In this document: in pieces, positions 3,788 to 36,033 of the stretch
Position numbering within the stretch: the first letter of the stretch is position 1
Layout: each line of letters opens with the position of its first letter
From: a virus
Direction: 5' to 3' (one strand)
Length of the DNA: 37,046 nucleotides
Virus record (IMG/VR): IMGVR_UViG_3300045988_137238
Location: 1 to 37,046 of that record
Made by a program: the position numbers and the translations under genes
The notes under the pieces: generated by a model
Seen by the model: only the letters and a program-made list of their open reading frames with translations
Told to the model about the DNA's origin: nothing
Databases searched by the model: none

Positions 3788-4480
3788 ATGCCGAAAGTAA
3801 AGAAGGTTAGGACACGGGGGTTTACCCAAGTTGATAACCGGGTCATCAGCGATAAACGGATGAGCTTAAAAGCGCTGGGGCTCTTCACTTATATGTGGAG
3901 CAAGCCGGACGATTGGGAATTTTACGTGTTGGCGATTAGTAAAGACTTCAAAGATGGCCGTGACAGCATCCGGTCCGCAATTAACGAACTGATCAGTCTT
4001 GGCTACGTTAAGCGCACTAGGAAGCACAAGAAGAATGGCCAGTTAGCGTCATACGATTACATTTTGTTTGATGAACCTAAGACGGAAAAGCCGTCACAGG
4101 CACCTACCTATGACGGAAAAACCTACGTAGGGAAAACCTACGTAGGAAAATCCGCCACTACTAATACTTACTGTACTAATACTAACTTAACTAATGATTG
4201 GCTGATTGATAATAAATTAAGCTCATTACCTGAGAAGCTGGGCGAAACTGAACGACAATGGGGCATGTTATCCACCAAAACAAAAGGGAGCCTGGAGGGA
4301 TTAGCCAGGCAGTTTGGTCCCCAAGTAGTCGGTGAAGGGCTACAAGCTTTTAACGAGAACGGTCAGTACAAATCAGGTCTGATTAAGTACATCAAAAAGT
4401 ACATTGAAAGCCAAAAAGCAGGACCGGAGTCGCTTAAGCTTAGTGCATCCTTAGTTAAGCTGGAAAGAAGAAAAATCTAA
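3788..4480 (+). CDS. Replication initiator / replisome organiser with N-terminal winged-HTH (HTH_36-like)
   Basis: SD aggagggg. FTQVDNRVISDKRMSLKALGLFTYMWSKPDDWEFYVLAISKDFKDGRDSIRSAINELISLGYV is the usual phage/plasmid initiator N-domain pattern. An internal DNA repeat region is present. Confidence 0.6.
   Translation: MPKVKKVRTRGFTQVDNRVISDKRMSLKALGLFTYMWSKPDDWEFYVLAISKDFKDGRDSIRSAINELISLGYVKRTRKHKKNGQLASYDYILFDEPKTEKPSQAPTYDGKTYVGKTYVGKSATTNTYCTNTNLTNDWLIDNKLSSLPEKLGETERQWGMLSTKTKGSLEGLARQFGPQVVGEGLQAFNENGQYKSGLIKYIKKYIESQKAGPESLKLSASLVKLERRKI
4081..4222 (+). promoter_or_regulatory. Candidate origin of replication inside the initiator gene (iterons + AT-rich tract)
   Basis: GGAAAA(A/G/T)CC-type repeats start at 4084, 4115, 4131 and 4145, including the tandem ggaaaa(a)cctacgtag x2. 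They are followed by the AT-rich actactaatacttactgtactaatactaacttaactaatgattggctgattgataataaattaag. Confidence 0.45.
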
Positions 4481-5990: not shown

Positions 5991-6011
5991 TATTTTAGTT
6001 GGGTGATTTAA

Positions 6012-6506
6012 ATGAAAGAATATGGAAATTTACTCATTAGTTCAGTAATACCTCTGTTAATCTCTGGGATTAGTACCATAGGTGGGATTTGGGGTGCGAC
6101 TATTCAAGCTAAAAAATATGAAGATTCAAAACGATCTAAGGTGGAATCTTATCAAAAAATATTAGAGGTAGTTGAACCTTTTAATGCTTTATATATTTTA
6201 ATTCGAGATTGTAGGTGGGCTGAAGCAAGAAATGTTTGCTTTAACGGGGCAGTGGATGAGCTGGAAAGTAAATTACAATCAGGTACTTATGTTTTGCTAA
6301 TTCCAGGAGGGGTATTAGAATCTACAGAGAGGATGTTGAATGAAATGGTCGAAATTGTAAAATTAGAAGAGCAAATGGGTAAAATTAAACCTGATTATAA
6401 CAAAAGATATAATCCAACTATCCTTGATGAAAAAATGGGAAACTTAGATAATGACTATGAACAATATATTTCTGAGATAAAGAAAAAATACAAATTATTT
6501 AGATAA
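6012..6506 (+). CDS. AT-rich orphan protein with N-terminal TM anchor (moron candidate)
   Basis: 164 aa. LLISSVIPLLISGISTIGGIWGATI is a TM helix and the rest is helical and charged. Composition is visibly AT-rich compared with the flanks. Its own terminator follows. Confidence 0.6.
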   Translation: MKEYGNLLISSVIPLLISGISTIGGIWGATIQAKKYEDSKRSKVESYQKILEVVEPFNALYILIRDCRWAEARNVCFNGAVDELESKLQSGTYVLLIPGGVLESTERMLNEMVEIVKLEEQMGKIKPDYNKRYNPTILDEKMGNLDNDYEQYISEIKKKYKLFR

Positions 6507-30654: not shown

Positions 30655-30673
30655 GTGCACCAAATGTGCACCA
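30655..30673 (+). repeat. Candidate integrase arm-type site, copy 1 (gtgcaccaaatgtgcacca)
   Basis: Exact 19-mer, itself GTGCACCA-aat-GTGCACCA (11-nt phasing). Confidence 0.5.
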
Positions 30674-30836
30674 ACTTTAAAATTTTATGGGGTTTTTCAA
30701 GTTTTTTATGCCGTAAAAACCGCTATAAATAAGGATTCGTGGTTCTCTAGGCTTCTTCAAAATTCTTCAAAAATGAGACGGGTGGGCAGTAACACTACTC
30801 CACAAACGTTGATTTAACAGTATTCTTGAGCTAAAC

Positions 30837-30855
30837 GTGCACCAAATGTGCACCA
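30837..30855 (+). repeat. Candidate integrase arm-type site, copy 2 (gtgcaccaaatgtgcacca)
   Basis: Exact copy abutting the int stop codon. Confidence 0.5.
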
Positions 30856-31944
30856 TTAGATGGATTCAAGCGCGGCGATGATCAGTTCATCGGTCTGGGC
30901 TTTGTACTCATCGATCAAGTAAGCATAAGTGTTAGACGTGATCACGGTCGAAGAGTGACCAAGTCGTTTGCTGATGGCGTAGAGATCAATGCCACTCGCT
31001 AACAAGAGAGCCACGTGTGAGTGACGGAGACTGTGGAAGTGGAAGTTCTGCCGGTTAATGCCTAAGTCGGCCAGGAGCGTTCTCAGCGTCTTATTGACGG
31101 CGTTACTGGTGGGAATGGTGCCAAACTGGGTGAGGAAAACCATATTGCTTTTAGAATGCGTTCTAAGCCCTCTCAGAAGCGCCAGAAGATGACGATTCAC
31201 CTTGATGACCCGATTAGACGATTCTGTTTTAGTCGGCTTGAATTGGCGTGTATGGGCGTCCCACGACTTGTTGATCGTGATTGTAGATTTAATCCAATCA
31301 ATGTCCGACCACGTAAGTGCCTGAATCTCAGCTAACCGCATTCCCGTATAAATCGCCGTCACAATCATGTGGCGGGAAGTGTAGCGATGGGTTAACCCCG
31401 CTTCAGCGTGTTGGATTAAGCGGTGAATCTCAGCTTTGTTGAGGTAGTCGACCTTGATCGACCGTGACTTATCGCTGTTCAGCTCCACACCTTGCGTGAA
31501 GTCCTTGATCAGATAGTCATCAAGGATCGCTGATTTAACTGCTGATCGAATGTAGCTGTTAACCTTTTTGACTGTGGACGGTGCGTGACAGCTGCCATAG
31601 TCATTGATGAACTCTTGGTAAATCGTCCTGGTGACTTGTCTGATTGGTGTCAGCTTAAAGAACCGACGGACTTCGTTAGCGGTGTAGTGGTACCGGTCAA
31701 GTGTGATCTTCGCCACCTTTGGCTCTTTGTAAGTCATAACCCACTGATCAACGTAATCGGCAAAAGTGATTTCCTTATCGGTCAGGATTCCTTTGGCCAA
31801 GTTAGCTTCATTCTCGACTGCCCACTTTTTAGCCAGGCTCTTAGTCGCGAAGCCGCCTTTGTTTTTAAACCTCCGTTTTCCAGCAGTATCATACCAGCTG
31901 ATACGAGCTTGCCACTTACCAGACCTTTTTACATATGACGCCAT
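30856..31944 (-). CDS. int: Tyrosine recombinase / phage integrase
   Basis: 362 aa. The N-terminal SAM-like domain is MASYVKRSGKWQARISWYD..GKRRFKNKGGFATK. The catalytic region has GMRLAEIQALTW, HSLRHSHVALLL and RLGHSS...TYAYL. Confidence 0.9.
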   Translation of the reverse strand: MASYVKRSGKWQARISWYDTAGKRRFKNKGGFATKSLAKKWAVENEANLAKGILTDKEITFADYVDQWVMTYKEPKVAKITLDRYHYTANEVRRFFKLTPIRQVTRTIYQEFINDYGSCHAPSTVKKVNSYIRSAVKSAILDDYLIKDFTQGVELNSDKSRSIKVDYLNKAEIHRLIQHAEAGLTHRYTSRHMIVTAIYTGMRLAEIQALTWSDIDWIKSTITINKSWDAHTRQFKPTKTESSNRVIKVNRHLLALLRGLRTHSKSNMVFLTQFGTIPTSNAVNKTLRTLLADLGINRQNFHFHSLRHSHVALLLASGIDLYAISKRLGHSSTVITSNTYAYLIDEYKAQTDELIIAALESI

Positions 31945-31993
31945 AATTACACCCCCCTTAATTAAACGTATGTTCGATTTAGTGGCTTTTAAA

Positions 31994-32012
31994 GCCGGCC
32001 ATTATGACCGGC
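31994..32012 (-). terminator. Hairpin terminator directly after the zinc-ribbon membrane gene
   Basis: gccggcc-attat-gaccggc (7 bp, one G-U pair). T-runs are present on both strands (TTT on minus, TTTTT on plus). It begins 6 nt after the stop at 32019. Confidence 0.45.
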
Positions 32013-32018
32013 GCTTTT

Positions 32019-32531
32019 TCATTTGATAGTAAATGACCTTCCGCAATCCAGACACACCCAATCGGATTTTTTGGTTTGCTTACCGGCAAAACCAGCAAGA
32101 GCACCAATTCCACCGGTTAATGCGGCTCCACCAACTGCTTTTCCAACCGAGAACCCCTTACGGTGTTTCCCCGCAAGTTGAATGTTTTTACTACCGCAAC
32201 GTGGACATTTCATTTTTGCTTGCATTCTGTCTTGCTTAGCTTTTTGCAGCTGTTGGATAACTGCTTGAGCCTCAGCATCAGCCTGAGCCTTCTTTTCGGC
32301 TTTAATGCGAGCCTTTTCCTCTTTTTCTTTCTTCATCGCTTCCCTTTCTTGAGGAGTGAGCGAAGCAGGAAACCTTTCATCGTGCTTTTTAATCGCAAAT
32401 TTAGTCGCAAAGTAGGCGACTACAGCAAGAAGGATAAATCCTAAAAATCCGTCGATACTTAAACCAATGATGGCACAAATGATTGTTGTGCCCCATAAGA
32501 TCCACTTTTCTAATGTACTAAAATTTTCCAT
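32019..32531 (-). CDS. 2TM, coiled-coil, C-terminal zinc-ribbon membrane protein (partner of the Abi_2 gene)
   Basis: ATG 32531 follows GGGAGG. The N-terminus MENFSTLEKWILWGTTIICAIIGLSIDGFLGFILLAVVAYFATKFAI holds two TM helices. A K/E/A-rich helix follows. The C-terminus is CPRCGS...GKAVGGAALTGGIGALAGFAG...CLDCG. Confidence 0.65.
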   Translation of the reverse strand: MENFSTLEKWILWGTTIICAIIGLSIDGFLGFILLAVVAYFATKFAIKKHDERFPASLTPQEREAMKKEKEEKARIKAEKKAQADAEAQAVIQQLQKAKQDRMQAKMKCPRCGSKNIQLAGKHRKGFSVGKAVGGAALTGGIGALAGFAGKQTKKSDWVCLDCGRSFTIK

Positions 32532-32536
32532 AGCTA

Positions 32537-32575
32537 CCTCCCAACAGCTTTTAACGTCGATCACGCTTGGACGTA
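32537..32575 (-). repeat. 39-nt leader repeat, copy A (35/39 identical to 34646..34684)
   Basis: cctcccaacagcttttaacgtcgatcacgcttggacgta. Includes the SD complement plus the perfectly shared blocks agcttttaacgtcgatca and ttggacgta. Confidence 0.85.
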
Positions 32576-32585
32576 AAATCATTTT

Positions 32586-33587
32586 CTATGAAGGAAATTT
32601 CATGTTCATAAATTCCTGCAGTCTTGAAATAAAATCTTTATCAACTTCAAATAAATCGTAGATGCTTTTACCGTTAAAAAGGTTTTGATTCCCATAAGTA
32701 TTAACAACTGATTCCAGCTCATCGATCATAGTAGATATAAGATATTGATCGTCTAGAAGTACAATAATACTAACTATAATTGAAAAAAGCCCATTGCGGG
32801 GTAATTCTTCCCCGTTCTTAGTTTTATAAAGAAACGAAATTGAGAACTTCTCTAAAAAAAGTATTTTTTGTGTGTCAGATTCCTTAAGCCGCAACTTAAA
32901 GGTTCTATTACCATGGGCCGAGAGATTTCTAAATCTATAAACTTGTTCTAAACAAATTTTGCAGAATTGCAGTTTATAGTCAGTTGTAACATTCTCATGC
33001 TTTGGCATTCTTTGAAGGAAAATGTTTACAACTTCTTTCTTTTCGTTAATCGATAAGGTGGAATACCAATTTACCATAGAGCCAAAGCTAATAACTTCTG
33101 CCGCTATCCATGGTGGTAAATTGCCTTCTTCATCTATATAGTGTTGGGCGATCTTGCTGCTTTGCTTAGCATCTTCAATTGCATTCATAAAATCGCTGAT
33201 TTTGCCACGTTGCGCTCTTATTTTACTGTAATTTTTTTTATCTAAGTACTTTTCTTCATCAATAGAAAAGTTTCGAGCTACTATATTTGAAACAAGGGCT
33301 TTTAGCCGTTCTTCTACTGCTAGTGAGTATTTAAAAATAATATTGCTAACTTGAACATCAATCCAATGAACTTGATATAACATTTCGAAAGAAGTTCCCG
33401 TTCGATATATATCGGGTTCTTTTTGCTTCAAGAACATATCTTTGTAGCCATTAATAATAGAGTAGTATGGAAATGTCATTAAAGCATTTTTAGCAAATTC
33501 GTAATCGTTTATTTCCACACCGCGACTTTTTAAAATTGCTATTTGCTCATCGAAAGATTTATACGGATGCTTAAAATTTTTAGACAT
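32586..33587 (-). CDS. Abi_2 (AbiD/AbiF-like) abortive-infection protein, HEPN-type R-x4-H motif
   Basis: 333 aa, very AT-rich. The N-terminus KSFDEQIAILKSRGVEINDYEFAKNALMTFPYYSIINGY is the characteristic Abi_2 start. VYRFRNLSAHGNR contains R-N-L-S-A-H. Confidence 0.75.
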   Translation of the reverse strand: MSKNFKHPYKSFDEQIAILKSRGVEINDYEFAKNALMTFPYYSIINGYKDMFLKQKEPDIYRTGTSFEMLYQVHWIDVQVSNIIFKYSLAVEERLKALVSNIVARNFSIDEEKYLDKKNYSKIRAQRGKISDFMNAIEDAKQSSKIAQHYIDEEGNLPPWIAAEVISFGSMVNWYSTLSINEKKEVVNIFLQRMPKHENVTTDYKLQFCKICLEQVYRFRNLSAHGNRTFKLRLKESDTQKILFLEKFSISFLYKTKNGEELPRNGLFSIIVSIIVLLDDQYLISTMIDELESVVNTYGNQNLFNGKSIYDLFEVDKDFISRLQEFMNMKFPS

Positions 33588-33589
33588 GC

Positions 33590-33629
33590 AAAAAGAGCCT
33601 CCCCACTATACAGTAGAAAGGCTCTTTTT
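33590..33629 (-). promoter_or_regulatory. Leader hairpin / terminator-like structure occluding the abi Shine-Dalgarno
   Basis: Perfect 11-bp complement aaaaagagcct (33590-33600) / aggctcttttt (33619-33629). On the mRNA strand it reads ...GGGGAGGCTCTTTTTGCATG, so the SD GGAGG overlaps the 3' arm and the start codon is 2 nt past the stem. Confidence 0.6.
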
Positions 33630-33667
33630 CGCAGGTCTCATCTAGGAAACCCATCTCAGATACCTTT

Positions 33668-33696
33668 ATAGTACCGTATAGTCTATTTTTAGTCAA
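33668..33696 (-). promoter_or_regulatory. Candidate sigma-70-type promoter for the abi / zinc-ribbon unit
   Basis: The minus strand reads TTGACT-17 nt-TACTAT (-35 at 33691-33696, -10 at 33668-33673). It lies just after the stop of the upstream ORF and about 40 nt before the leader hairpin. Confidence 0.45.
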
Positions 33697-33700
33697 CTTG

Positions 33701-34123
33701 TTAATCAACAAATTCAACAATATCTCCCACTGAAATAACTGGATCAGGCTTGATATTTTTTACATCTGAGTTATTTACATTTAAGTTTTTAAATTTTGGC
33801 GATGAGGCCTCTTTGATAAGAGGAGGGACACTGGAAGAGTTAAGGCTTTTTGATACTTTCTTTCTAGCAATTGAATACTTATCACGAACATCAGTGATTT
33901 CTAAGTAATCAATTGGAGGGTTATAACTACCTAGTGGTTCATTTGTATCGGGGTCAGTCAACTCCATGCCTTTCGATTCTACAACTATTTGTTGACCAAC
34001 TTTTGCATACTTTGGTTCACTACCAAAGGGCAAATCGTCTCTATCTACATCATCTTCATATCCATAGTTAATGATAATTCTTGTATCATCTGGAATTGCT
34101 ATAACTTTAATTTCTTTTTTCAC
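33701..34123 (-). CDS. AT-rich orphan cytoplasmic protein (140 aa)
   Basis: GTG 34123 lies 8 nt after GGAGG. VKKEIKVIAIPDDTRIIINYGYEDD...ISVGDIVEFVD has no TM and no recognised family. Confidence 0.5.
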   Translation of the reverse strand: MKKEIKVIAIPDDTRIIINYGYEDDVDRDDLPFGSEPKYAKVGQQIVVESKGMELTDPDTNEPLGSYNPPIDYLEITDVRDKYSIARKKVSKSLNSSSVPPLIKEASSPKFKNLNVNNSDVKNIKPDPVISVGDIVEFVD

Positions 34124-34179
34124 TATAATTGCCTCCAATAAATAATTTATATCCGCCCCTTGCCCCAGCGGGGGATGCT

Positions 34180-34638
34180 TTAGTTATGCGAGATGCTCCC
34201 ATCATCCCCGACGGTGGCCGTGTAGCCATCTCCGGAAAATGTCCAGCCGTTGGAAGTCCTCGTTGCCTGCAAGTCGCCGTTAGCACCACCAAGCATTGCA
34301 CGGGCCTGGTCCTCAGTAGTGGGGCCGTCGTTCTGAGCCGCCTGATCACGAGCCTGCTGCTGGCTACTCCAAGCATCTGGCTGTGAGCTCTCACTAGATT
34401 GGGTGGATTGGACGCTCGAAGACTGACTTTGGGCTTGCTGATTGGTCTGACTAGTAGAACTAGATGAAGATACGGACGAGCTCTGGGGCTTTTGGTGACG
34501 CTTCTTGTGGTGGTGCTCAACTACCTTGGTAGATGAACTACTGCTTGCCTTATGTGACTGCTGTGACGCCAGATTGTTGCAGGCTGAAAGTGACATACCG
34601 ACTAACAGTGTGGCACAAACTAAGCCTATCTTTTTCAT
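34180..34638 (-). CDS. Lipoprotein with S/Q-rich linker (superinfection-exclusion candidate)
   Basis: ATG 34638 lies 6 nt after GGGAGGA. MKKIGLVCATLLVGMSLSAC has a signal peptide with an L-S-A-C lipobox, then a low-complexity S/Q region and a small C-terminal domain. Confidence 0.7.
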   Translation of the reverse strand: MKKIGLVCATLLVGMSLSACNNLASQQSHKASSSSSTKVVEHHHKKRHQKPQSSSVSSSSSTSQTNQQAQSQSSSVQSTQSSESSQPDAWSSQQQARDQAAQNDGPTTEDQARAMLGGANGDLQATRTSNGWTFSGDGYTATVGDDGSISHN

Positions 34639-34645
34639 ACATAAT

Positions 34646-34684
34646 CCTCCCACTAGCTTTTAACGTCGATCAGGGTTGGACGTA
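34646..34684 (-). repeat. 39-nt leader repeat, copy B (35/39 identical to 32537..32575)
   Basis: cctcccactagcttttaacgtcgatcagggttggacgta, in the same orientation as copy A. It occupies the intergenic gap between the membrane-protein stop (34693) and the lipoprotein start. Confidence 0.85.
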
Positions 34685-34692
34685 GGATTTTT

Positions 34693-35220
34693 TTATTTGT
34701 ACAGTTTGACCCCGCCGCTTAACGTCATGCGTGCAACCGGATTGCCGTTTTGGTCGTAAAACGATACCGGCGCATTAGCGTTGTGGCTTTCGAGCAGACT
34801 GATCACACTGCCGTAGACTTCTTTTTGCTCGTTGTCGGTCATGGCGGCAACACTGTTAGGCACGGTTACGTAAAACTGGCTGTCTTTGTAGGCAATCTTA
34901 AAGCCGTTAAGTGTAGAGTTGCTCGCCATTTGACTGGTCAGATTCTTTGCCAGCGCGGTGTATGTAGCGTCATCCATAGCCTGGTCGCGTGATTCGCTCT
35001 TAGATTCCGAGATTGACTCGGACTTGGCCTTTTTAGACGACGCAATTGACGACGATTCTGCTGCCCGTTGCTTATCCACATTATCAGCGTGGGTAAAACC
35101 GATGATAGTCACACCGACCACCGCTAAGAGCAGAGCACTGATTTTACCGCCTTTACGTTCACGGTTGCGTATCCAGTACCAGACGGCAAGCAGCAAAAAA
35201 AGAAAACCTAAAATCATCAT
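34693..35220 (-). CDS. Membrane-anchored extracytoplasmic protein (175 aa)
   Basis: SD AAGGAG with 9-nt spacing. Two N-terminal hydrophobic segments, an S/E/K-rich linker and a globular C-terminus. Confidence 0.65.
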   Translation of the reverse strand: MMILGFLFLLLAVWYWIRNRERKGGKISALLLAVVGVTIIGFTHADNVDKQRAAESSSIASSKKAKSESISESKSESRDQAMDDATYTALAKNLTSQMASNSTLNGFKIAYKDSQFYVTVPNSVAAMTDNEQKEVYGSVISLLESHNANAPVSFYDQNGNPVARMTLSGGVKLYK

Positions 35221-35226
35221 AAATAA

Positions 35227-35685
35227 TCACTCCTTAGTTAAATTTATGGTCTGACGTAAATCAAACCAGTAACCCCCATGTTTAAACAAAAGGCCGTACT
35301 TAGTACGATAATTAATAATTGCTTGGTAAAGATACTTTTCGGTCACGCCAAAATAGTCAGCGATATCCTGTGATGTCCACAGATCATGCTCATAACAGTA
35401 GATCAGACCATCAAGTGTCACGGCCCGCATCATAGCGACTGATCGTGCCAGGCGTTCTTGTTTACAGTCAGAACAGTCTGAGTACTGAGAGATGTCACCA
35501 ACGGTATAGTCATAGTGTGCAAACTCCTCATGTAACACTTGATACTTTTCCCGTGATTCAAGGTGATCGTTGATATAGATATCGCCATCAAGCAGCAGTC
35601 CGCCAAAATGGCCAGGGATTTTTTGGTGGATAAAGATAATGTGGATTGTAGGACGACTGCTTGCCAACTCTTCAAATTTATCCAT
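35227..35685 (-). CDS. ImmA/IrrE-family zinc metallopeptidase (anti-repressor protease)
   Basis: 152 aa with the HEEFAH (HExxH) motif, located immediately downstream of the XRE repressor. Confidence 0.75.
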   Translation of the reverse strand: MDKFEELASSRPTIHIIFIHQKIPGHFGGLLLDGDIYINDHLESREKYQVLHEEFAHYDYTVGDISQYSDCSDCKQERLARSVAMMRAVTLDGLIYCYEHDLWTSQDIADYFGVTEKYLYQAIINYRTKYGLLFKHGGYWFDLRQTINLTKE

Positions 35686-35697
35686 AAAATCGCCTGC

Positions 35698-36033
35698 CTA
35701 GTGTTTGCGTGCCTTTTTAAGGTTTTCAATAAAGTTGATGATCTGCTGGCGTTCAGATTCTGGCGTATCATCGTCGATATGAGCCGCAATCGTGTCAGCA
35801 GCATAGTTAGTTTTGTTTTCGTTATTTTCGCTTGTCAGATAAGAGATAGTCACGTGATAGTGCTCCGCCAGTTTCTGCAGAGATCCTGAGCGGGGCATTT
35901 TTCTACCATGCTGCCAATCAGACACAGTTGAGTAGGCAACACCGATTCGGTCAGACAGCTGCGATAGATTTTCACCATTAGCTTTCATCAAGGCGTTTAG
36001 GTTTGTTGAGAAAATTTTTGTAATGTCTTCCAT
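35698..36033 (-). CDS. cI-like XRE-family HTH repressor (no S24 peptidase domain)
   Basis: 111 aa. NLNALMKANGENLSQLSDRIGVAYSTVSDWQHGRKMPRSGSLQKLAEHYHVTISYL is an HTH_3 pattern. Divergent from the cro-like gene. Confidence 0.8.
   Translation of the reverse strand: MEDITKIFSTNLNALMKANGENLSQLSDRIGVAYSTVSDWQHGRKMPRSGSLQKLAEHYHVTISYLTSENNENKTNYAADTIAAHIDDDTPESERQQIINFIENLKKARKH

Follow-up and report, generated by a model that had tools for sequence, protein, structure and literature searches.

Introduction

Which elements belong with a phage-borne abortive-infection gene is the question raised by a 37,046-nucleotide stretch of viral DNA (IMG/VR record IMGVR_UViG_3300045988_137238), referred to below as the window. 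The window is the lysogeny module of a Limosilactobacillus fermentum temperate phage with a mobile cassette at approximately 34148–32592 on the minus strand, the strand on which the parts located below lie. A preliminary description had placed in it an AT-rich two-gene unit, in which an Abi_2/HEPN protein (ORF1) was accompanied by a dedicated membrane partner with a zinc ribbon (ORF2).

Genes for AbiD/F proteins rank with the most abundant in abortive infection, and Cas13 is believed to descend from such proteins; that they depend on an RNA encoded upstream was recognized only in 2024–2025. DefenseFinder handles AbiD as a single gene. In lactococcal abiD1, a terminator and sequestration of the Shine-Dalgarno (SD) sequence act as an attenuator and translational lock. 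The preliminary description took Abi_2 systems to be single genes, a premise that is out of date, since AbiD/F systems are now described as consisting of a HEPN toxin protein and an upstream non-coding RNA (PMC13064643, PMC12373285). The published layout of RCd22-AbiFCd is a SigA promoter, the non-coding RNA, a Rho-independent terminator, and abiF, in that order (PMC12373285, PMC13064643, PMC12737573), and RCd22 carries two abiF motifs (PMC12373285). Published AbiF systems require RNA and protein only (PMC12373285), and in two studied systems the upstream RNA serves in cis as well as in trans (PMC12373285, PMC12737573). In the lactococcal systems, a conserved upstream non-coding region is needed for the gene to be tolerated, and expression is weak and tightly controlled (PMC13064643).

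AbiD gene and boundaries of the cassette

ORF1 (32586..33587, minus strand) encodes a protein of 333 amino acids that scored 102.4 bits with Pfam Abi_2 (PF07751; cut-off 25.6), residues 35–230 being covered, and also matched the PADLOC AbiD model (2e-38) and phrog_2158 (1.2e-62). Its HEPN motif is R220-N-L-S-A-H225 (RNxxAH), and residues R220, N221, A224, H225, G226, and R228 were invariant in 27 homologues (RNxxAHGxR). A profile of the family matched the solved AbiF structure PbAbiF (8vz6_A) with an E-value of 1.3e-11 over the N-terminal 190 residues. Judged from its sequence, ORF1 is an Abi_2/AbiD-family HEPN protein, and it is called AbiD below. The preliminary description had recognized the Abi_2/HEPN character and the RNLSAH motif and had proposed profile searches and a PADLOC screen as checks; both placed ORF1 inside the family. 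By analogy with published AbiF systems, AbiD is most likely a toxic RNase.

The G+C contents of AbiD (0.323) and ORF2 (0.431) were different, and that of ORF2 was like those of the neighboring lysogeny genes cI (0.432) and M78 (0.420). A low-G+C island extended from approximately 32550–32577 to 34150 and contained AbiD and a gene for a protein of 140 amino acids (o140, G+C 0.338), not ORF2. Because the island reaches approximately 34150, it includes a further gene upstream of ORF1, which was absent from the gene list of the preliminary description. The AT-rich two-gene unit had thus been misplaced, with the island taking in o140 instead of ORF2. Horizontal acquisition, which had been proposed for the whole unit, holds for AbiD as cargo in a lysogeny module; ORF2, which differs in G+C and is separated from AbiD by homology breakpoints, does not belong to the same acquired unit.

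These breakpoints lie in the gap between AbiD and ORF2, the length of which (54 nt) had been given correctly. A 54-nt linker at 32537..32590 (minus strand; core ACGTCCAAGCGTGATCGACGTT...GGGAGG) supplies the ribosome-binding site of ORF2 and forms the right-hand junction of the cassette. A second copy at 34646..34699 (minus strand), upstream of a lipoprotein-like gene, forms the left-hand junction of a 2.1-kb inserted block; the two copies constitute a direct repeat (D1) with 81% identity. The linker motif is also found ahead of the zinc-finger gene of phages LF1 and phiPYB5 and ahead of further moron genes. Homology to LF1-type phages ended at 32576–32579 and that to the cassette of L. ingluviei at 32545, both inside the linker. 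The linker had no convincing −10 box, and it was rejected as a promoter and regarded as a repeat at a module boundary. The lipoprotein-like gene (MKKIGLVCATLLVGMSLSAC...; 34180..34638, minus strand; 157 amino acids, G+C 0.53) matched phrog_33215 (9e-27) and, weakly, lipoprotein and superinfection-exclusion PHROGs. It accompanies o140 and AbiD in an L. ingluviei prophage (L012) and is missing beside them in two other loci (L013 and L014), and the homology common to the window and these two loci covered exactly o140, the leader, and AbiD. The lipoprotein-like gene is therefore within the linker-bounded block and outside the conserved o140–AbiD pair.

ORF2 (32019..32531, minus strand; 170 amino acids) matched phrog_24502 (5.7e-90) and is a lysogeny-module gene of L. 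fermentum phages, with 255 homologues, mostly in Limosilactobacillus. Its architecture was as the preliminary description had read it from the sequence: a pair of hydrophobic helices at the N terminus, a stretch rich in K/E/A (coiled coil), and a CPRC...CLDC ribbon around a glycine-rich hydrophobic insert (glycine zipper). Like the LITAF/SIMPLE-like membrane-embedded zinc ribbon (PF10601), ORF2 has two CxxC knuckles set apart by a hydrophobic segment some 20 residues long; unlike PF10601, it has two additional N-terminal transmembrane helices and a coiled coil. The match to PF10601 was weak (14.9 bits, under the Pfam cut-off of 23.8) but ran over the entire domain (model positions 3–66 of 70), and the relatives P0106 and P0100 gave E-values of 0.005–0.009. 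Of the hairpin terminator that had been placed after the ORF2 stop codon, the hairpin itself was found (31994..32012, minus strand; 8-bp stem, −14 kcal/mol, z = −2.5), but the U-tract was weak (CUUUAAAAG).

Upstream gene o140

The o140 gene (33701..34123, minus strand) has a GTG start codon, with the SD sequence GGAGG 8 nt ahead of it, and homologues share the start position. Its acidic product (pI 4.75) is a predicted beta-barrel. Among AbiD-seeded loci, 35 of the 38 members of the AbiD clade had o140 as the immediate upstream neighbor of AbiD, in the same orientation. In the reciprocal direction, loci were gathered with subgroup alignments of o140, and AbiD followed o140 in all 26, which came from Limosilactobacillus, Ligilactobacillus, Streptococcus, and Holdemanella genomes; six further prophage contexts agreed with this pairing. 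Pairwise identities of o140 and AbiD were correlated (r = 0.93), and the pairing persisted down to AbiD identities of approximately 25%, in several genera and in differing phage backbones. Among the examined loci, the only exception to AbiD directly following o140 was a distant o140-like ORF lying 1.7 kb upstream in L154. A Streptococcus genome (L019) retained the leader and AbiD without o140, which indicates that o140 is dispensable for retention of the locus. These results suggest that o140 is a protein partner specific to this AbiD clade and apparently undescribed.

No match to o140 was found in Pfam, NCBIfam, or PADLOC, and a sequence-profile search against the PDB gave matches at chance level only. 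An AlphaFold model built with 11 close homologues had a pLDDT of 48 and was discarded, whereas an AF2 model from a 70-sequence alignment had a pLDDT of 88. In a Foldseek search of the PDB, the best matches of this model were FlgT C-terminal and TsaP-type barrels (PF16538; 3w1e, 8z5n, and 6ve2), all weak (TM 0.41–0.45, with FlgT at E = 2e-3 to 2e-2; best E = 2e-3, TM 0.45); against phage FlgT_C-like proteins the value was approximately 5e-5. FlgT_C (PF16538) was weakly matched by nine of 21 members of the o140 family (best 7.5e-5), and the o140 of the window had no match. FlgT and TsaP build rings in the periplasm, whereas o140 sits in a defense cassette, and the resemblance of the predicted fold does not indicate a function. 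By eye, the o140 sequence had no recognizable signal peptide or hydrophobic segment.

Promoter and leader RNA

A promoter-like site at 33668..33696 (minus strand) begins 4 nt past the o140 stop codon and consists of TTGACT (33696–33691), a 17-nt spacer, and TACTAT (33673–33668), as the preliminary description had proposed. By consensus alone this site was not above chance, since 15 such sites were found against 9.6 expected. However, an automated pattern found the −35/−10 arrangement at the equivalent place in 23 of 27 distinct homologous intergenic sequences of the AbiD clade; in three more the −35 box was only truncated, the sequences having been cut out at the stop codon, and the last had a −10-like TATAAT without a clear −35 box. 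The −35 box adjoins the o140 stop codon or shares bases with it in nearly all of the distinct sequences of the clade. Since o140 is located upstream of the AbiD promoter, the two genes need not be co-regulated.

The predicted leader RNA (33588..33662, minus strand; approximately 70–75 nt) consists of "UGARAUG", a hairpin P1 (33652–33646 paired with 33639–33633), "CUGCGAAA", and a long hairpin P2 (33632–33588), with both sequences flanking P1 being conserved and single-stranded. The 3' arm of P2 contains the AbiD SD sequence GGAGG (33602–33598), and a U-run at its end stands right before the ATG of AbiD. The structured leader that had been noticed earlier was borne out by folding (−35.2 kcal/mol, z = −6.1). 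In a 17-sequence alignment analyzed with RNAalifold and pair counts, 96% of cells were paired and 19 cells showed double changes, values reached by none of 500 shuffles, and slid controls were 41–58% paired; P1 was among the covarying elements. A covariance model of the leader (R1) scored 77.8 bits in the window and 47–80 bits in all clade loci, only at the equivalent position. The P2 hairpin and U-run end 1–10 nt upstream of the AbiD start codon, and their pairing is conserved and covarying. A simple terminator scan flagged neither P2 nor the hairpin after ORF2, and both were judged from folding and conservation. Nearly all members of the AbiD clade kept the promoter, P1, and the terminator that sequesters the SD sequence, and AbiD genes of other clades had a similar upstream layout in a weaker form. 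We therefore predict from these alignments that a gene for a short RNA, transcribed from a promoter of its own, immediately precedes AbiD, with a putative intrinsic terminator between this RNA and the AbiD start codon. A conserved AUG in the leader was considered as the start of a leader peptide or as an alternative AbiD start and was rejected, because the frame that it opens is not conserved, ranging from three codons up to read-through in frame, and one locus (L093) has AUC instead.

The Rfam abiF motif (RF03085) was not found in 31900–34800 even at E ≤ 10, nor at the gathering score in 16 related loci, whereas the positive control phiC2 was detected at 37.6 bits; our own regular expression for the abiF motif found nothing in 161 loci. 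An antitoxin role of the leader would thus follow from analogy of layout, not from RNA homology.

Discussion

In the preliminary description, AbiD and ORF2 formed a two-component system with the membrane zinc-ribbon protein as a sensor or a second, membrane-disrupting effector. The two genes are indeed adjacent on the same strand with no terminator in the 54 nt between them, and the pair recurs in phage JNU_P5 and a metagenome contig (L175); a fusion protein, Plim_2023, in which a HEPN domain of the Abi2/Swt1 group is joined to two transmembrane helices and a zinc ribbon, is also on record (Anantharaman et al. 2013; PMC3710099), and is comparable by domain description only. However, the three co-occurrences, including the window, had near-identical AbiD and o140 (HMM scores 468–472 bits), and the window and JNU_P5 have one 98%-identical block in common. 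In the gene-neighborhood survey that had been proposed as a check on the pairing, ORF2-like genes were not enriched beside Abi_2 homologues: an HMM found no ORF2-family gene in any of 160 AbiD-seeded loci, and a motif heuristic found no small protein with two CxxC motifs and a hydrophobic segment adjoining AbiD in any of 149. ORF2 was present without AbiD in eight related L. fermentum phage contexts (phages LF1 and phiPYB5 and six viral contigs), close relatives of the cassette have AbiD directly followed by the integrase, and sister L. fermentum phages have different defense candidates (Abi_alpha and PDC-S02) in the slot upstream of ORF2. With the G+C mismatch (0.32 vs 0.43) and the breakpoints inside the repeated linker, this evidence makes the pairing very improbable, and ORF2 was rejected as the partner of AbiD. 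ORF2 is a conserved membrane protein of these phages, unrelated to AbiD, that flanks a variable defense-gene slot.

Two further explanations concern the parts upstream of AbiD. The o140 gene might be a passenger that either closes the lysogeny operon or is a moron in its own right, with the leader RNA and AbiD alone forming the working system. Its absence from the L019 locus, the similar leaders without o140 in other AbiD clades, the position of the AbiD promoter, and the sufficiency of RNA and protein in published AbiF systems (PMC12373285) are in line with this; yet loss or replacement of a neutral hitch-hiker should be far more frequent than the 26 of 26 o140-seeded loci (the L154 ORF being the one exception among all loci examined) and the pairing across genera and phage backbones allow, and the junction of its stop codon with the −35 box is nearly constant. 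We regard a mere passenger as rather unlikely. It is also unlikely, and slightly more so, that the leader works solely in cis, attenuating transcription and locking translation, rather than as a trans-acting antitoxin RNA. The pairing of P2 with the SD sequence, the U-run directly before the start codon, the unmatched Rfam motif, and the single P1 motif, compared with two abiF motifs in RCd22 (PMC12373285), are consistent with a purely cis-acting leader. On the other hand, P1 covaries and is conserved with its flanking sequences beyond the needs of a plain terminator, and upstream RNAs do both jobs in the two AbiF systems studied (PMC12373285, PMC12737573).

Having established the family membership, anatomy, conservation, covariation, and co-occurrence of the parts, we consider that the cassette probably consists of o140, a leader RNA with its own promoter, and an AbiD/F HEPN RNase under the control of the leader, with ORF2 unrelated to it. 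It would be a known kind of system, AbiD/F with a cis RNA, to which a seemingly undescribed, clade-specific protein partner has been added. AbiD would act as a dimeric HEPN RNase toxin that keeps an infected cell from growing. In cis, the leader, through its terminator and the pairing of the SD sequence, would allow little AbiD to be produced; in trans, the abundant short RNA would bind AbiD and block its active site in the manner of a type III antitoxin, a role that is most likely by analogy with the published AbiF layout. Infection would disturb the balance between leader and AbiD, and AbiD would be released. The o140 gene would be a clade-specific accessory whose protein most likely works together with the AbiD protein, be it as a sensor, an adaptor, or an extra inhibitor, and an o140 transcript running on into the leader would provide a second source of leader RNA. 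More tentatively, the cassette may be a three-part hybrid toxin–antitoxin system with an RNA motif outside Rfam abiF, in which o140 binds AbiD or the leader RNA and either senses a phage product or serves as a second, protein antitoxin.

RCd22-AbiFCd of the C. difficile prophage phi027 and PbAbiF-AbiFr (8VZ6) resemble the system of the window in having an Abi_2/HEPN protein with an RNxxAH catalytic motif and in being prophage-carried. AbiF/ncRNA type III systems likewise have an upstream short RNA (predicted in the window), its own sigma-A-type promoter, and an intrinsic terminator shortly ahead of the toxin gene, at which the majority of transcripts end early. Unlike those systems, the leader of the window lacks the abiF motif and has one small hairpin motif with other conserved sequences, and its terminator also pairs the SD sequence. 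AbiD of the window is only distantly related to PbAbiF, as the profile match over its N-terminal part indicated. In the window, a gene for a conserved 140-amino-acid protein stands ahead of the RNA, and none was found in the publications consulted on RCd22-AbiFCd and PbAbiF-AbiFr. The lactococcal AbiD/AbiF systems share the Pfam Abi_2 family but are plasmid-borne, whereas the system of the window is on a prophage, and their upstream regions are likened by description only; a tblastn search for lactococcal AbiD/AbiF gave no Lactococcus match among 45 plasmid records, the proteins being too distant.

Single-gene AbiD models thus miss two conserved components, the leader RNA and o140, and the PADLOC library we searched contained no model matching the latter. 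Having another motif in its leader RNA and a nearly constant protein partner, the clade offers a defined and testable case of RNA-controlled HEPN toxins gaining extra regulatory or sensing parts. The attractive but wrong pairing of AbiD with ORF2 is corrected, and a variable defense-gene slot is marked in L. fermentum phages.

Genomic setting and composition

The region lay among the lysogeny genes of a temperate phage of Limosilactobacillus fermentum and, by megablast, was 97–98% identical to phages JNU_P5, LF1, and JNU_P1. In transcription order, the minus strand carried genes for a cI-like HTH repressor (35698–36033), an M78 peptidase (35227–35685), a 175-aa membrane protein (34693–35220), a lipoprotein-like protein of 157 aa (34180–34653), o140 (33701–34138, called at 140–145 aa), the AbiD protein ORF1 (32586–33587), the membrane zinc-ribbon protein ORF2 (32019–32531), and, last, the integrase (30856–31944). 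The preliminary description had treated ORF1 and ORF2 as a self-contained AT-rich unit. The positions of both ORFs, the 54-nt gap between them, the promoter-like TTGACT-17-TACTAT at 33696–33668, and the hairpin after ORF2 were all present as described. The AT-rich composition held for ORF1 (32.3% G+C) but not for ORF2 (43.1%), which was level with the repressor (43.2%) and M78 (42.0%) genes; the low-G+C island instead extended upstream of ORF1 over o140 (33.8%), ending near 34150.

The 157-aa gene (34180–34638 in a second delimitation; 53% G+C) encoded a lipoprotein-type signal (…LVGMSLSAC) and a Ser/Gln-rich region, matched lipoprotein and superinfection-exclusion PHROGs weakly, and accompanied o140 and AbiD in an L. 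ingluviei prophage. Elsewhere in the window, 6001–6500 formed a lone low-G+C stretch (31.6%, with a strong GC skew of 0.34) amid a structural region of approximately 48% G+C. Three copies of a GTGCACCAAATGTGCACCA-like repeat just past the integrase gene (30655–30673, 30826–30844, and 30837–30855) are possibly arm-type sites for the integrase or repeats of an att site.

ORF1 and its conserved upstream gene

The assignment of ORF1 to the Abi_2/HEPN proteins was borne out by matches to Pfam Abi_2 (102 bits; cut-off, 25.6), PADLOC AbiD (2e-38), and phrog_2158 (1e-62), and the ORF1-family profile matched the solved Prevotellaceae AbiF structure 8vz6 (E = 1.3e-11). Among 27 aligned homologues, R220, N221, A224, H225, G226, and R228 were invariant, confirming the proposed R-x4-H HEPN motif.

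The real start of o140 was a GTG at 34123 with GGAGG 8 nt upstream, giving 140 aa in agreement with homologues and the JNU_P5 annotation. With an iterated HMM, 35 of the 161 loci that had an AbiD-family match proved to carry an o140 homologue immediately 5' of AbiD and co-oriented with it, and one distant o140-like ORF lay 1.7 kb upstream in locus L154. Those 35 were among the 38 loci scoring at least 220 bits with the AbiD subfamily HMM, the three exceptions being L015, in which AbiD was cut at the contig end, L019, and L099. Reciprocally, an AbiD-family ORF lay directly 3' of o140 in all 26 o140-seeded loci (split into two ORFs in L199), seven of which were new contigs missed by AbiD seeding. 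Genomes were named in the records as those of Limosilactobacillus, Ligilactobacillus, Streptococcus, and Holdemanella. Among the pairs, AbiD identity fell to approximately 25%, and pairwise identities of o140 and AbiD were correlated (r = 0.93, 31 distinct pairs). The DNA common to the window and loci L013/L014 ran from 34148 to 32592, exactly o140, leader, and AbiD. A second, divergent Abi_2 gene directly followed the o140-AbiD pair in L093 (5676–6725), L174 (4667–5719), and L192 (5231–6280), giving AbiD paralogues in tandem.

No match to o140 was obtained in Pfam, NCBIfam, or PADLOC, and an exhaustive HMMER search of 1.84 billion proteins gave only 70 representative clusters. The AlphaFold model from the 70-cluster alignment, which was of good confidence (pLDDT 88, pTM 0.76), predicted a small beta-barrel plus a C-terminal strand. 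Its best fold matches were weak: FlgT/TsaP-type barrels (PDB E = 2e-3 to 2e-2, TM 0.41–0.45) and, at about 5e-5, a handful of small phage proteins. In agreement, 9 of 21 relatives weakly matched FlgT_C in Pfam. The protein was acidic (pI 4.75), and inspection of its sequence by eye revealed neither a signal peptide nor a hydrophobic segment.

The leader RNA

Almost throughout the clade, the stop codon of o140 abutted or overlapped a -35 box (TTGAC), with TAnnAT 17 nt further on. Downstream of this promoter came a conserved UGARAUG, a small hairpin (P1), a conserved CUGCGAAA or CUAGGAAA, and a long terminator-like hairpin (P2), whose 3' arm held the AbiD Shine-Dalgarno sequence and whose U-run ended a few nucleotides short of the start codon. 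The structured leader already proposed was upheld by its strong predicted fold (-35.2 kcal/mol, z = -6.1) and conserved pairing: across 17 sequences, 96% of cells were paired and 19 were changed on both sides, a level reached by none of 500 shuffles, and sliding the partner columns left 41–58% paired. A covariance model had one match in the window (33585–33667, 77.8 bits) and matched every clade locus at the same position with 47–80 bits; weaker matches (23–33 bits) with the same layout lay upstream of other-clade AbiD genes without o140. Judged from these alignments, the leader is a conserved RNA element. The conserved AUG was also considered as the start of a reading frame and rejected, as it opened no conserved frame.

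In Streptococcus phage Javan374 (L173, 2929–3984), the deposited AbiD CDS begins at this AUG, and the annotated protein would therefore take in the P1 and P2 region. The true start is likely the UUG/GUG after the U-run, and related streptococcal prophages probably share the mis-call.

Recent work shows AbiD/F systems to be more than single genes. In C. difficile and in a Prevotellaceae bacterium, the HEPN toxin AbiF is neutralised by an RNA whose gene lies immediately upstream, with a promoter of its own and a terminator halting most transcripts before abiF; these are therefore type III toxin-antitoxin systems, and lactococcal AbiD, AbiD1, and AbiD-like proteins are thought to work as AbiF does (PMC12373285, PMC13064643, PMC12737573). 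The window locus had the same layout, but its leader differed and fell outside the Rfam abiF model, which gave no match to it at E ≤ 10 and none at gathering score in 16 related loci, while the phiC2 control was found. These publications make no mention of a conserved protein gene upstream of the AbiD/F RNA; the one neighbourhood survey found groups neighbours by functional class only (PMC12373285).

Candidate partners of AbiD

One point in favour of the two-component system of AbiD and ORF2, as first modelled, is a planctomycete protein on record in which an Abi2/Swt1-group HEPN domain is fused with a pair of TM helices and a Zn ribbon (PMC3710099). We ran family HMMs over all ORFs of 160 AbiD-seeded loci (80 genomic, 80 viral) and of eight loci seeded with ORF2. 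The ORF2 HMM matched in none of the 160 AbiD-seeded loci, nor the AbiD HMM in the eight others, and a sequence-independent heuristic (at least two CxxC plus a hydrophobic segment in an adjacent gene) detected no such neighbour of AbiD in 149 loci. ORF2 belonged to phrog_24502 (“zinc-finger domain protein”, 5.7e-90), with 255 homologues, mostly in Limosilactobacillus; it adjoined an Abi_alpha/PDC-S47 gene in LF1 and a 91-aa gene in phiPYB5, both without AbiD there. The two genes occurred together only in the window, JNU_P5, and metagenome contig L175, where AbiD and o140 were near-identical by HMM score; the window and JNU_P5 shared a single 98%-identical block. In close cassette relatives, found in L. 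balticus and L. urinaemulieris and in a further six prophage contexts, AbiD was followed directly by the integrase. Homology breakpoints fell between ORF1 and ORF2, within the 54-nt linker. Absent from AbiD-seeded loci, found elsewhere without AbiD, and separated by breakpoints, ORF2 is very unlikely to be a dedicated partner.

The AbiD locus is real but was mis-partitioned and mis-partnered. We consider it fairly probable that it represents a known kind of abortive-infection module, in which an AbiD/F HEPN toxin would be restrained by its own cis leader RNA. In this clade, the motif of that RNA is distinct, and a small protein, predicted to be a beta-barrel, is linked to the module almost without exception. 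Because L019, a Streptococcus genome, retained a full leader (3917–3992, 58.5 bits) and AbiD with no trace of o140 upstream, RNA and AbiD probably form the autonomous core and o140 is probably accessory; it seems rather unlikely that o140 is a mere passenger. L019 provides a natural “deletion” of o140 for comparison with o140-bearing relatives.

The slot upstream of ORF2

At its C-terminus, ORF2 had a split zinc ribbon holding a glycine-zipper insert. This module aligned below threshold over the whole LITAF-like domain PF10601 and recurred in seven or more further PHROG families; it is possibly a version of the membrane-embedded LITAF fold in bacteria and phages. Since the slot directly upstream of ORF2 in sister phages held other genes (Abi_alpha, a PDC-S02 candidate, an IS30-like gene, or unknown genes), ORF2 is a conserved backbone gene flanking a variable slot, which looks like a defence-gene hotspot. 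Abi_alpha/PDC-S47 occupied it in LF1 (L002, 7812–8573) and the PDC-S02 candidate in L006 (3945–5018); elsewhere there were unknown genes of 240–330 aa (L007, 3567–5733; L009, 4065–5738). A linker of approximately 40–54 nt occurred at 32537–32590 and 34646–34699, and in L002, L003, L004, L007, and L008. Its core, ACGTCCAAnCnTGATyGACGTTAAAAGCTGnTGGGAGG, included a short ACGTC/GACGT inverted repeat and an RBS. Within the lysogeny modules of L. fermentum phages, it preceded various moron genes and coincided with homology breakpoints; it may mark a site of module exchange or be a translation/processing signal that these genes share.
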